IMG/VR virus record: IMGVR_UViG_3300049173_000046
Span: 1 to 40,535 of that record
DNA: 40,535 nt
Reading direction: 5' to 3' (one strand)
Source: a virus
Taxonomy: Duplodnaviria; Caudoviricetes
Shown piece by piece: positions 24,499-31,399 of the stretch. A program made the translations under genes and the position numbers. Positions within the stretch are counted from its first letter, which is position 1, and every line of letters starts with the position of its first letter. The notes beneath the pieces were generated by a model, which was not told where the DNA came from, made no database searches, and saw only the letters and a list, made by a program, of their open reading frames with translations.

Positions 24499-24571
24499 GG
24501 TGGCTCCTTTAGGTGGTCTTTTCTTCCCTTGCTGACTCCTAAAGTATACACGCCTAACCGTGTATTCGGTG

Positions 24572-24595
24572 TACTTATCTACTTACCTAAGTAAC
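24572..24595. promoter_or_regulatory. parS-like 8-bp repeats downstream of par genes
   Basis: TACTTATC TACTTACC TAAGTAAC; a related array lies upstream of parA. Confidence 0.65.
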
Positions 24596-24602
24596 TTTTC
24601 CG

Positions 24603-24908
24603 TCACTTTTTCAGCGTCCGGATTAGGCGGGCAGCGACGGCGGCCCGGACCTCGTCATTCGTCAAAAGCTCGTCCACTAAGGCGCGCATAATGTCCATGG
24701 TCGGGACCTGGGCCCGGCCTAGCTGCTCCGGGATCCTCAACTCGTCCGGGTACGCTTTCAGGTCCCGGTAAGTCTCCTTGCCTAAGTCCACGGATAGGCG
24801 GACGGGCCGGCTCCGGCTCGGGCCGTTCGCCGGTGCCGGCGCTGCTGCCGGCTGGCGGGCTAGGACGGCGTCCGCTGCGGCGTCCAGGTCGTCTTGCCGG
24901 CGGCTCAT
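24603..24908 (-). CDS. Partition centromere-binding protein (RHH/ParG-like)
   Basis: ATGA-coupled to parA; flexible N-term then VRLSVDL..Y..LK..DIMRALVDELL ribbon-helix-helix pattern. Confidence 0.75.
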   Translation of the reverse strand: MSRRQDDLDAAADAVLARQPAAAPAPANGPSRSRPVRLSVDLGKETYRDLKAYPDELRIPEQLGRAQVPTMDIMRALVDELLTNDEVRAAVAARLIRTLKK

Positions 24909-25546
24909 GCGCGGGCCCCCGTTTCAAGCTCGGAAGCTGCGGAAAAGTACCCGTATAGGTTCCCGACTATCGGCCGGCCGAATGCGCCGGCGCTGATCGC
25001 TTCCCGCCGGCGTATCTCGGTTCTGAGGACTCGGCAGCCTAACGGCTCAAGCTTCCGCCGGAACCTGCCGGCACTTAGCGCGGTCGGGTTTATCCGGTTC
25101 AAAAGGACCTGGACCCGGACCGGCTCGGGCCGGTGCCGGTCTACCCTCGCCGCGGCGTCCAAAAGTTCCGGGACCTCTGCAAGTTCCATAAGGGACGGGG
25201 CCATGGGAAGCACGACGGCGGACGCGGCGCGCATGGCGCTCTCCACGATGCCGGCTTCCCTCTCAAGTGGGGGCGTATCGATGATAACGACGTCGAACCG
25301 CCGGCCGATTAGTCCGGGCAACTCGCGGTGAATGTGCGGCGTCGCTAGTCGCTCCGTTCGGATGCTCCAGCCGGCTAGGGCGGCCCACTTGCTTAGGCTG
25401 CCGGCCTTGCGGGTGCTGTCTGCGTCCACTAGCAGGACGTTGTGGCCTAACTCCTGGAAGGCGTGGGCTAGGTAAGCGCACGACGTTGTCTTGCCGGTGC
25501 CACCTTTGAAGTTAGCCAGGGCGATTATCTGCGGTTCCGTATCCAT
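24905..25546 (-). CDS. parA: ParA partition ATPase (type Ib-like)
   Basis: KGGTGKTT deviant Walker A, VLLVDAD, IIDTPP, LLNR; probable leaderless start MDTEPQ. Confidence 0.95.
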   Translation of the reverse strand: MDTEPQIIALANFKGGTGKTTSCAYLAHAFQELGHNVLLVDADSTRKAGSLSKWAALAGWSIRTERLATPHIHRELPGLIGRRFDVVIIDTPPLEREAGIVESAMRAASAVVLPMAPSLMELAEVPELLDAAARVDRHRPEPVRVQVLLNRINPTALSAGRFRRKLEPLGCRVLRTEIRRREAISAGAFGRPIVGNLYGYFSAASELETGARA

Positions 25547-25618
25547 GCCGCAAATATAGACGGCGTACTTGCCTAAGTACATAAGGACACGCGGCCGGGC
25601 TGTCTATATAGTGGGGGC
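25547..25618. promoter_or_regulatory. Back-to-back leaderless promoters with parS-like repeats
   Basis: -10 TATATT 6 nt before parA ATG (minus); -10 TATAGT (25607-12) 6 nt before GTG 25619; TACTTGCC TAAGTACA at 25566-25581. Confidence 0.55.
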
Positions 25619-26002
25619 GTGGATTGGTATTTCGATAGGGCCGGCCGACCTATGACTCGGGACGCGTGGGCGGCCGCGGTGACGTCCGGCAGCGGGAAGC
25701 GCGTGGCGCTCACTAACTGCGGGAAGGCCGGGACCGTCTCGACGGTCTGGACCGGCCTGGACCTCGGGTTCGCTCGGCCGGCCCCGGTGATCTTCGAAAC
25801 GATGATTTTCGGCGGGCCCCTCGACGGCGAATGCTCGCGTTACTCCACGGAAGCGGACGCGCTGGCCGGGCACCGGTTCCACGTTCTCTGGCTCCAAACG
25901 GTCGCCGGACTACCTGGCCGGCCCCGCCGGCAGCGGCCCGGACCTCGGCCGGTCCCTGTTCGCCGGCGGATCCTCATTCATAACGGCCGGCGTTTTTCCT
26001 GA
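25619..26002 (+). CDS. Conserved phage hypothetical protein
   Basis: VSTVW.G.D..FETMIFGG..RY.T..A..GH motif I recognise from other phage hypotheticals. Confidence 0.7.
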   Translation: MDWYFDRAGRPMTRDAWAAAVTSGSGKRVALTNCGKAGTVSTVWTGLDLGFARPAPVIFETMIFGGPLDGECSRYSTEADALAGHRFHVLWLQTVAGLPGRPRRQRPGPRPVPVRRRILIHNGRRFS

Positions 26003-26257
26003 GCGCGCGAATTTTCGCGCGCGCGTTAACTTAGGTGGGGTACTCGATAACGTCTTGGCCGTGGTGGGTTGGGTATCTAGTAGTTCTGTTTTTCCGGGGC
26101 AAGGAAAAACGCGCTTGCGCGCTTTTCCGCGGCAGCGGGGGGGCGGTCCGCTTTGCGGGCCGGGGGGCCGGGCCCCCTCTCGCCGCTGGTAGGTGGCCTT
26201 AGCTCACCTAGTCTTGGACTACTTACCCGGCCGGCCCCCACGCGAAAAATTCGCGCA
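26003..26257 (+). ncRNA. Candidate structured non-coding RNA / prophage origin
   Basis: Nested complementary segments and internal hairpins, several G-U pairs favouring + strand; no credible ORF. Confidence 0.4.
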
Positions 26258-26505
26258 TAATCCTCCCTTTACCCGGCGTCCTCCGGGGCATCATTCCCGG
26301 AACTGGGGCGGGGGCCTAACCCGCAAAAAGGCTGGGCCACTGCAACGTGGGTTCGAACCGGGGATGAAGCGGCCCCCGGAATTCTAGGCGCGACAAAATG
26401 GCCGTACCGGGCGGCGGCCTGTCCTCGGGTCCTGCTCTGTGTCCTGTTTTCGGGCGTGGGGTATTACGGCGGGGACTTCACGTCCTTTCGGCGTCTCGTT
26501 TTTGG

Positions 26506-26542
26506 GCAAAAAAATAACCGGTAAGCGACACGCGCTTCCGGT
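26506..26542 (-). terminator. Leftward intrinsic terminator inside the non-coding region
   Basis: Minus strand ACCGG-AAGCG-CGTGT-CGCTT-A-CCGGT + TATTTTTTT. Confidence 0.6.
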
Positions 26543-26701
26543 CCTCCTGCTGCTATACGTCGTTGCGGTAGACTTCTAGACAACGGCAATACTGCGGCAA
26601 ACGTTCACGGTTTGCGGGTGTTGCTGGAAGTCTCCGAATTGGCGTTCGGGGGCTTCCGTCTTTTAGACACTAGCAGCCGGATTCGGCCGGCTAGCGGATT
26701 A

Positions 26702-26745
26702 AGGGCCGGACGCGCCGGGGTGGCGTGTCCGGCCCTTTCTTTTTA
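26702..26745. terminator. Terminator hairpin at repressor 3' end (U tract on + strand)
   Basis: AGGGCCGGACGCGCC/GGCGTGTCCGGCCCT + TTCTTTTT. Confidence 0.7.
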
Positions 26746-27123
26746 TGCGCTCCTTGCCGGCCTGAGCTTCCGGCGGTCCCGTAGCGAGTTGATAACGGCG
26801 CTGACTGTCTCTAGGTCCTCCGGGGATAGCTCCCGTAAGGATGCGGCCAAAATGTCCACGCGCTGCTGGCCCCCTGTTCCCTCCGGCGTAAGGCCGGCGG
26901 ACGCCATGGCGGCTTGCTGGATAACCCGCAACGGCTGGCGTAGTCCTTTAGCCAGCTTCTCTAGCGTCTCGGCCCGCGGCATGCTGTTCTGCTTGGCGAT
27001 GGCAAGTTGGCCTATCTTCGCTTTCGATAGGCCGGCGCGGGCGGCTATTACTGAATAGCTCTCGCCGGTGCTGTCCTGGTGCGTATGGATTAGCTCGGCT
27101 AACGTTACGGCTTTTGTGTTCAT
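26743..27123 (-). CDS. Immunity repressor (XRE HTH)
   Basis: SYSVIAARAGLSKAKIGQL..P..ETLEKLAKGL; divergent from Cro-like gene. Confidence 0.85.
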   Translation of the reverse strand: MNTKAVTLAELIHTHQDSTGESYSVIAARAGLSKAKIGQLAIAKQNSMPRAETLEKLAKGLRQPLRVIQQAAMASAGLTPEGTGGQQRVDILAASLRELSPEDLETVSAVINSLRDRRKLRPARSA

Positions 27124-27195: not shown

Positions 27196-27225
27196 AGTCT
27201 ATAACTTGTAGACGGTCCCGGACAA
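27196..27225 (-). promoter_or_regulatory. Repressor promoter overlapped by operator GTCTA-N7-TAGAC (27197-27213)
   Basis: Minus strand TTGTCC-18-TAGACT; palindromic operator. Confidence 0.6.
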
Positions 27226-30141: not shown

Positions 30142-30605
30142 CGCCGTGGCTTTTCGGGCTCGACGTCGACGGCGTTCCGGTTCCTCAAGGCAGCAAGCGG
30201 ATAGGCCGGAACCGGGGGACCGGCCGGCCGGTGCTGCTGGACGATAACCGGAACCTGGAAGCGTGGCGGGCCCTGGTGGCGCTCCGGGCCCGGCAGGCGT
30301 GGGGCGGCCGGCCCCCCATTGCCGGCCCGGTGTCGGTATGGGCTGACTTTTACCTGCCGCGGCCGGCCGGGCACTTCGGCACCGGCCGGAACGCCGGCGT
30401 CCTCAAGGCGTCCGCGCCGTTTTATCCGGCGGTCAAGCCGGACGGGGACAAACTCCTGCGGGCCGTCTTCGACTCGCTCACGACGGCCGGCGTCTGGAAA
30501 GACGATTCCCTCGCCGTCGTGTGGTCCGGGGCCAAACATTACGCCGGCCCTCTGCGGGTGCCGGGCGTGTCCATTCAAATTCGGGATATGGGGGTGCTGT
30601 CGTGA
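30138..30605 (+). CDS. rusA: RusA-like Holliday junction resolvase
   Basis: PVPQGSK, KPD.DKL.RAV.DSL..W.DDS.V..K.Y. Confidence 0.93.
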   Translation: MTPWLFGLDVDGVPVPQGSKRIGRNRGTGRPVLLDDNRNLEAWRALVALRARQAWGGRPPIAGPVSVWADFYLPRPAGHFGTGRNAGVLKASAPFYPAVKPDGDKLLRAVFDSLTTAGVWKDDSLAVVWSGAKHYAGPLRVPGVSIQIRDMGVLS

Positions 30606-31399
30606 GTATCGAGGCTGTTTCGTGGGCGCTGAACTTTGCGGACGTCCGGGACCCTGGGGAAGCTCTCGTGCTAATCGGGATTGCGAATCATGCCGGGAAG
30701 GACGGCCGCGGCTGCTGGGCCGGGCAGGCGACGCTGGCGCACTATGCGCGTTGCTCGGAACGGACCCTGCGGCGGAAGCTGTCCGCGCTGGAAGCGCGCG
30801 GGGTGATCGTCCGCGGCGACCAGGCACTTGTGGACCATATCCCGGCGTCTCGCCGTCCGGTGGTGTGGGACTTGGAATGGCCGGGACAAAATGGCCGGCC
30901 GGTCAGTCTGTCCGGTCAAGTTGGGCAGCGGGGGCCGGTCACTGGTGGCAGCATGGCCGGTCAAAATGAACCGAGTGGCCGGTCACGGATGTCCGACAAA
31001 CCGGAAGATAAACCGTTAGGGGAACCGTCAGACTTAAAGAACTCGGCCGGCGGCTACAGTTTCGCGGATTTTTGGACCGTTTACCCTCGGCGCGAAAAGC
31101 GGGCGGAAGCGGTCAAGGCGTGGGAAAAGGCAGTCAAGCGGGCGGACCCTGGCGCGATTGTCGCCGGGGCCATCCGGTACTTGCAGGACCCTAACCGGGA
31201 CCCGGCCTTTACGGCGCACGCGTCCTCGTGGCTGAACGGGGACCGGTGGGAAGATGAACCGCTGCCGGCGCGCGGCAGGCAGGCGGACCGGGGGGCCGGC
31301 ATCCTGCAGGCGGAATACCTGGCGGCTCAAGCTGCGGACGCTGCCGGCGTCCTCGGGTACGTTCCGGGCCAGCTCGCTATCGACGGGGGCCCCCGATGA
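30602..31399 (+). CDS. Replication initiator (N-terminal wHTH, C-terminal FW..YP domain)
   Basis: MSIEAVSWA..VLIGIANHA..SERT..L..LE..G; F.DFW.VYPRR..K.A..AW, H.SSWLN.DRW.D. Confidence 0.85.
   Translation: MSIEAVSWALNFADVRDPGEALVLIGIANHAGKDGRGCWAGQATLAHYARCSERTLRRKLSALEARGVIVRGDQALVDHIPASRRPVVWDLEWPGQNGRPVSLSGQVGQRGPVTGGSMAGQNEPSGRSRMSDKPEDKPLGEPSDLKNSAGGYSFADFWTVYPRREKRAEAVKAWEKAVKRADPGAIVAGAIRYLQDPNRDPAFTAHASSWLNGDRWEDEPLPARGRQADRGAGILQAEYLAAQAADAAGVLGYVPGQLAIDGGPR
30897..30985 (+). repeat. Iteron-like GGCCGGTCA repeats (candidate lytic origin)
   Basis: Copies at 30897, 30910 (GTCCGGTCA), 30933, 30955, 30977; last three exactly 22 bp apart. Confidence 0.6.

Follow-up and report, generated by a model that had tools for sequence, protein, structure and literature searches.

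The window analysed here, a complete phage genome of 40,535 bp with terminal repeats and of soil origin, contains at 26003-26672 what is probably a Rep-independent, RNA-initiated replication origin. Some role of this region in initiation is very likely, a judgement resting on gene-content logic. As for its repressor-proximal part (26508-26672), we have little doubt, judging from sequence, that it represents a predicted attenuator of pT181/pIP501 type under antisense control. A preliminary description of this DNA had proposed a Rep-independent RNA origin under antisense control; the core of that idea gains support from comparison of relatives, but the anatomy turned out to be different. Coordinates of the features are collected in Table 1.

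Table 1. Features of the candidate origin and of neighbouring genes (positions in the window; A5, alignment of 15 module loci)
Feature	Position	Strand	Basis or remark
Putative ParB-like small ParA partner	24603..24908	-	Position and conservation
ParA	24905..25546	-	phrog_164, E 2e-27; Pfam AAA_31/CbiA
127-aa ORF (orf127)	25619..26002	+	Homologs at 33-52%; usual slot neighbour, dispensable there
Slot RNA family A, reached by predicted read-through; candidate origin and initiator/primer RNA	26003..26507	-	75% to L012
Distal core, most conserved; candidate RNA-to-DNA switch site	26012..26084		78-85% identity to L012
Attenuator terminator, hairpin and U tract	26508..26542	-	CCGG and T tract invariant in A5
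Predicted leader RNA, ~153 nt, ending at attenuator	26508..26660	-	A5 and folds
Predicted -10 box TAGACT, counter-transcript	26569..26574	+	T, A and last T invariant, 15/15
Predicted antisense RNA, ~80 nt, two stem-loops	26581..26664	+	15/15 loci
Predicted antiterminator	26614..26625	-	Pairs with attenuator apex
Recognition hairpin	26626..26657		CGCCAA loop in leader; UUGGCG loop (26639-26644) and terminator in counter-transcript
Predicted -10 box TAGTGT, leftward leader/initiator transcript	26667..26672	-	T, A and last T invariant, 15/15
Hairpin at repressor 3' end	26701..26737		Terminator listing; hairpin at same place in relatives
Immunity repressor	26743..27123	-	PHROG scan; 59-65% identity to counterparts in cultured, integrating Arthrobacter phages
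O-like initiator, lytic operon	30602..31399	+	phrog_270, E 1.7e-31; HTH_36

A PHROG scan of 69 ORFs of the window identified siphovirus head and tail genes, ParA, the repressor, a Cro-like protein, RecE/RecT, RusA and SSB. No integrase was found (PHROG, 69 ORFs; Pfam, 25 ORFs), and no plasmid-type repA was detected by PHROG and Pfam ORF scans or with the RepA-like proteins of two relatives (L003, L005) as queries. Par genes without an integrase are the arrangement of non-RepA RNA-origin prophages. The O-like gene of the lytic operon is, as had been stated before, the only initiator-like gene. A retron was ruled out (no reverse transcriptase among the 69 ORFs), and a rolling-circle or ColE2-type origin, considered on account of motifs, was dropped because no such Rep is encoded. 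In every par-type locus a homolog of the ParB-like partner, which matches no PHROG or Pfam family, comes after parA. On both sides of parAB, short TAC(T/C)T repeats (24570-24592 and 25566-25579) may be parS sites. From the identity of its repressor to those of Arthrobacter phages the host is inferred to be Arthrobacter-like; cultured phages with such repressors include Galaxy, Abidatro, Kuleana and Coral, which we take to be cluster AS phages, and in several of them an integrase is annotated next to the repressor gene. The palindrome GTCTA-N7-TAGAC occurs four times, at 27197, 27372, 33856 and 36128, and probably represents the repressor operator; no copy falls in the slot or the origin module.

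The preliminary description had placed an ORF-less slot between the par genes and the repressor. The slot is real and conserved, and no ORF on either strand of 26003-26520 is conserved between the window and its homolog L012; however, the conserved orf127 intervenes before parA. A region of ~600 bp without conserved ORF near parA is typical of RNA origins, here with the 127-aa ORF in between. No Pfam or PHROG family was found for orf127, and Atlas returned unnamed clusters only. It was ruled out as an initiator, being sited away from the slot in one relative (G003) and present also in RepA-type phages. The latter are larger par-type contigs that encode the same ParA, its partner and orf127 (L003:3031-4564 and L005:3903-5404), having a small repressor-like ORF and a RepA-like gene in place of the RNA slot. 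The two terminators of opposite polarity seen earlier were both recovered, as the minus-strand attenuator terminator and as the hairpin at the repressor 3' end, which likely insulates the leader promoter.

Repressor searches returned 19, 24, 18 and 4 loci in overlapping sets. In one group of relatives an integrase comes after the repressor; in the other, a shared module of ~180 nt is found there. Leaving out duplicates (L018, L019, L043, L044, L047) and contigs ending short of the module (L039, L046, L048, L057), alignment A5 comprises 15 non-redundant loci including the window, its rows being related to each other. The module is kept in all of them with a mean identity of about 60%. ParA is present in ten; the remaining five contigs end first.

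Both predicted -10 boxes are conserved at their three diagnostic positions, the background frequency of TANNNT being 0.35% of window positions. The minus-strand box sits 28-31 nt before the hairpin loop and the facing plus-strand box ~55-70 nt beyond it; the start of the leader was placed near 26660, 7 nt behind its -10 box. The leader is thus predicted to contain converging promoters for sense and antisense RNA, as in pT181/pIP501 attenuators. The counter-transcript (73-87 nt) folds in every locus into two hairpins, the second ending in U residues. Its loop reads UUGGCG in nine loci (the window and eight others), UUGCCG in three and otherwise in three. The recognition hairpin was scored by the terminator listing as a plus-strand terminator, and its two helices are paired in 85% and 93%, with changes on both sides. 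A small antisense RNA with stem-loops and a recognition loop, again as in pT181/pIP501, is thereby predicted. This hairpin, the two facing promoters and the antiterminator were all absent from the preliminary description.

The duplex of antiterminator and terminator is better than that of shuffled antiterminators in 15/15 loci (at most 1% of 500 shuffles in each), and own antiterminator-terminator pairs are better than foreign ones (p 3e-4; 0.02 without the window and L040). On the alignment, 86% of the cells of this helix are paired and 5 of 11 pairs are changed on both sides; its covariation score is equalled by 1 of 500 shuffles and slid controls give 10-45%, the segments having been picked after complementarity was seen and the aligned rows being kin. 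Truncated ahead of the last terminator arm, nascent leaders adopt the antiterminator pairing in all 15 loci. At equilibrium, full-length free leaders favour the terminator in 11/15, the window included (0.77), and the probability of the terminator base stem falls below 0.25 in just four. With the terminator favoured in the majority of free leaders, switching has to be kinetic, that is co-transcriptional. When the antisense-covered part is blocked, terminator probability rises to 0.99-1.00 in 14/15. Sequence and folds therefore yield a terminator and a mutually exclusive pre-emptor pairing under antisense cover, the third element of the pT181/pIP501 layout. Searched against 56 sources, a covariance model of the module matched only the loci used to build it, with no match in integrase-bearing loci, RepA-type loci or RedRock/LadyBird.

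Where a single new RNA family had been proposed, at least four unrelated slot families were found behind the shared module: A (window, L012, L040), B (L010, L016, L017, L022), C (L014, L015) and D (L011, L035, L042, L045). They have no mutual match (nhmmer, either orientation), and no motif common to them or to mycobacteriophage origins was found. Of the two other loci, L013 is cut after an ORF common to L011 and L035, and L041, a contig of 1279 bp without context, has an initiator-type ORF directly behind the module (61 codons; phrog_1032, E 4.7e-6). The distribution of slot families is at odds with the repressor tree and with module similarity: the module of L012 (A) has 75% similarity to one of family D, and L016 (B) clusters with L011 (D) with support 99/97. 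The slot is, by this independence, a swappable cassette. Other insertions occur around it. An ORF of ~131 aa with a good ribosome-binding site and of no known family is inserted directly behind the attenuator in L011 (5643-6035), L013 (4245-4643) and L035 (behind 1770), and is absent in L042 and L045. An extra non-coding block of ~170 nt with a hairpin around TCTAGAATT is common to L045, in the gap between orf127 and family D, and L010, in the gap between orf127 and family B, independently of the slot family.

We also compared replication gene content. Four near-complete relatives (G002-G005) were examined whole, which with the window makes five slot-bearing genomes; G002, G004 and G005 are 99-100% complete by CheckV and classed as 'linear'. 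A tyrosine integrase was not found in any of the four. G003 and the window keep the O-like initiator; G002, G004 and G005 have no phrog_270 or HTH_36 initiator. Thus three of five near-complete slot-bearing genomes, including one with a family A homolog (G002), are without recognisable initiator, primase, helicase and integrase. PHROG scans covered all 110 non-virion ORFs of at least 75 aa in G002 and 106 of 204 such ORFs in G004 and G005, selected by strand and position; no initiator, helicase or polymerase was found among them, and a lone 'primase' label was discarded as a secondary match on a methyltransferase. The initiator gene follows RusA in the window, whereas in G002 RusA runs into the next conserved gene, so its loss is not due to a contig end. 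As G002 carries its family A homolog without an initiator, the element is independent of the 30602 protein. An HTH_36 initiator is present in 5/5 complete integrating relatives against 2/5 slot-bearing genomes, a trend that is not significant by itself (Fisher two-sided p 0.17). Proteins of unknown function common to G002, G004 and G005 could hide an initiator. Between RecT and RusA, G002 (L104:10477-12097) encodes a membrane protein, a GTP-cyclohydrolase-like ORF and phrog_15826, possibly a base-modification cassette.

Family A is 75% identical to L012 over 521 nt (E 1e-79), its only full-length homolog, and 89% identical to L040 over the part covered by that contig. Exact-pattern scans of IMG/VR for this family returned the L012 contig only, and a terminator-pattern scan six contigs, all already among the collected relatives. 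The slot DNA of the window had no real match in cultured phages or plasmids and was not found in 401 Micrococcaceae-family genomes (26 short chance-level matches); model R1 had no match in 151 genomes of this family. The Rfam search proposed in the preliminary description gave no family at gathering score in the window and chance-level matches only at E<=1. In the literature, mostly that outside subscription, no paper on the origin of this phage group was found. The distal core is matched by contigs with unlike flanks in 4/4 soil or rhizosphere runs, some of them very deep, read depth here not being a copy number; an abundant element shares this core. Contigs from sequencing runs offered too few independent variants for a covariation count, and no RNA run was listed as containing the slot.

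Every motif quoted in the preliminary description is present in its place, and the nested plus-strand fold drawn from them stands in part. On either strand, the region 25995-26265 is more stably folded than its shuffles (z -2.6 for plus, -3.8 for minus), but the fold is poorly kept in L012, whose matching part is no more stable than shuffles (z -0.2 and -1.1). There, the outer helix keeps 8 of 11 pairs, CAGCGG/CCGCTG 4 of 6 and TAGGTG/CACCTA 5 of 6 plus an A-C, which on the minus strand reads G-U; the GGTTGGGTA and AGTAGTTC helices are broken in part or gapped, and the GGAAAA hairpin is retained with changed sequence. The helix 26031-26038/26204-26211, which the preliminary description does not mention, is Watson-Crick in L012 at 8/8 pairs. 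The G7 run, which together with the plus-strand fold had prompted the analogy to ColE1, is interrupted in L012, is one of three in the window and is not on the strand of the predicted transcript but on the other. Although about 75% conserved, 26260-26505 is no better folded than shuffles (z -0.1 and +1.4). Consensus folds of family A (two rows, 14 shuffles) score better overall on the opposite strand (z -4.0 versus -2.4 on the leader strand), and in the proximal half the leader strand is ahead (-3.2 versus -1.7), so that the folded strand of this family may be either.

With family A structure not clearly on the transcript strand, and a distal core whose primary sequence is conserved and recurs in unlike contigs, the region might instead be an origin or priming signal at the DNA level, which attenuated transcription just opens for a host or unrecognised phage protein that starts synthesis, the RNA not being the primer. 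Unknown proteins common to the initiator-less genomes (phrog_30790, 32341, 32481) would suit such a role, but they sit in the repressed lytic operon. Moreover, families B and D show covariation over long structured strands, the leader strand scoring better (B, 26 of 140 pairs changed on both sides, z -11.0 versus -8.2; D, 13 of 67 pairs, z -6.8 versus -3.9; 14 shuffles each), and four unrelated slots are exchanged among close relatives with no matching gene exchange seen. We therefore regard a DNA-level signal as unlikely and prefer an RNA origin, a reading limited by family A having two full-length members only.

Distant homologs of family B exist in the cultured phages EvenBluerMoon (nhmmer E 7e-10), JanetJ and Aoka. 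In EvenBluerMoon (L135:3540-4070) and JanetJ (L139:1620-2200) the family B-like region is non-coding and is preceded by a -10 box, two CGCCAA-loop hairpins and a facing -10 box, with no attenuator; gene 30 of EvenBluerMoon, overlapping the promoter, may not be a real gene. The parts of EvenBluerMoon that were viewed bear no annotated replication gene, and a scan of 17 of its proteins revealed none either. Shorter family B-like matches lie beside integrases of Nandita and seven related phages. In Nandita (L138:7001-7390) the stretch is annotated as hypothetical gp40 and adjoins two integrases and a tRNA; a sliding clamp is present and no initiator is annotated within the 21.6-42.4 kb viewed. 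Since these phages integrate, the RNA is not tied to plasmid lysogeny, and its occurrence there fits an origin that would be used in lytic growth.

The same occurrence would also suit a regulatory or defence RNA, or a long parAB leader, with no role in initiation. The predicted transcript indeed heads to parA on the same strand, in L014 parA follows directly after the slot, and three loci carry the ~131-aa ORF behind the attenuator. Against this, L017 and L022 have 700-1700 nt of oppositely oriented genes between slot and parA, no par genes are annotated near the EvenBluerMoon homolog, the module drives a Rep-like ORF in L041, and G002, G004 and G005 would be left without a way to start replication; we hold such a role to be improbable. 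Least credible is maintenance of the prophage by low expression of the O-like initiator, with promoters and terminators as the slot's sole content: the window and G003 do carry the gene, but the family A homolog of G002 resides in a genome that lacks the gene, and a non-coding sequence of 500 nt is kept at 75% identity.

For the preferred RNA-initiated origin we propose the following mechanism, in which a leftward transcript would prime DNA synthesis and the ~80-nt antisense RNA would set copy number via early termination. RNA polymerase would start near 26660 on the minus strand, and the antiterminator of the nascent leader would pair with the terminator apex, permitting read-through. With rising copy number, the counter-transcript, its UUGGCG loop kissing the CGCCAA loop of the leader, would cover the antiterminator, and transcription would stop at 26508. 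In the weakest step of the scheme, the read-through RNA would fold, stay hybridised near the distal core, ~580-650 nt from its start, and be extended by host enzymes, on the model of ColE1 and Inc18 plasmids. Sequence comparison provides the conserved facing -10 boxes, hairpins, terminator and antiterminator complementarity, the lack of a conserved ORF and the exchange with Rep and integrase; the priming chemistry we infer by analogy. ParAB would segregate the plasmid prophage, and relatives without an initiator gene would use this origin to begin lytic replication as well.

More broadly, and with more doubt than confidence, we suggest that actinophages possess unrelated, interchangeable initiator RNAs behind one antisense switch, which replace Rep or integrase and in G002, G004, G005 and EvenBluerMoon act as sole initiator in both lytic and prophage replication. 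RNA-primed replicons were known from ColE1 and from cluster A mycobacteriophages, there without a mechanism. The locus supplies a defined model of control (promoters, antisense RNA, attenuator, antiterminator), and behind its one module Rep, integrase and four RNA families replace each other in nature. It offers a possible answer to how phages without replication genes copy their DNA, for which the cultured Arthrobacter phages are the indicated test systems, and could yield low-copy vectors and orthogonal RNA attenuators for Actinobacteria.

Among known systems, the cluster A parABS mycobacteriophages come first. In five of them (RedRock, LadyBird, Alma, Gladiator, Et2Brutus), ~600-bp non-coding regions are described as replicating plasmids without an ORF (PMC7157519). 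As that paper describes for cluster A, par genes and a non-coding region of ~600 bp replace the integrase here, and close relatives interchange cassettes of integrase, Rep and RNA (PMC7157519). We found no sequence homology of slot or module to RedRock-type origins, and the two are likely analogous, not homologous. In 10/10 cluster A origins (L008, L009, L112-L119) a TAGAAA/TACAAA -10-like box lies 23-29 nt before a loop hairpin (loop CUGCCA/UUGCCG) and a facing TANNNT 38-45 nt behind it, with a counter-transcript of 60-67 nt predicted. Leader promoter, loop hairpin and facing promoter are thus predicted in both systems, whereas the U-tract attenuator between leader and slot of the window was seen in none of the ten mycobacteriophage leaders. 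Such a counter-transcript in mycobacteriophage origins is a prediction absent from the main text of PMC7157519, where antisense RNA or attenuation appears in a reference title only. Mabel and 40AC have only the facing-promoter/hairpin part in common with RedRock, so that a modular build may hold in cluster A too. The direction of the RNA differs: the cluster A RNA is described as starting beside parA and running away from it (PMC7157519), while the transcript predicted here starts beside the repressor and runs toward parA, on the parA strand. Cluster A phages also encode their own DNA polymerase (PMC7157519, Fig. 2 legend), whereas several relatives here lack any recognisable replication gene.

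The module agrees with the attenuator layout described for pT181 and pIP501 (PMC5703833, PMC4981023), sharing with pT181 and pIP501-Inc18 the convergent promoters, the two-hairpin antisense RNA, the leader terminator and the pre-emptor pairing. For Inc18, the read-through transcript itself was proposed as the source of the primer (PMC5703833, PMC4981023). The pT181/pIP501 attenuator gates a rep ORF, whereas no ORF lies behind that of the window; such gating of a rep gene is seen in 1 of 15 loci (L041). A Cop repressor was not identified here.

The primer transcript of ColE1 is about 550-650 nt long, and a G-rich tract is found in this RNA. ColE1 initiates without protein from a transcript, with an antisense RNA directed against its 5' end (PMC7157519, introduction). 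A protein-free start from a transcript of about 550-650 nt, with antisense RNA to the 5' end, is likewise predicted here, and no homology to ColE1 RNA I/RNA II was found in Rfam and plasmid searches. ColE1 control consists in misfolding of the primer; the predicted mechanism here is termination by attenuation, and the conserved features are those of the module, not the plus-strand fold or the G7 run, which, unlike the ColE1 tract, is on the other strand and not conserved. The UUGGCG loop hexamer is the same as in ColIb-P9/IncI antisense systems, where, going by a reference title in PMC3753616, it lies in the loop of the target RNA; here it is in the counter-transcript. The ColIb-P9/IncI systems control translation of rep. 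By sequence a member of neither group, the element most likely operates as the mycobacteriophage RNA origins do, with gating of the pT181/pIP501 kind.
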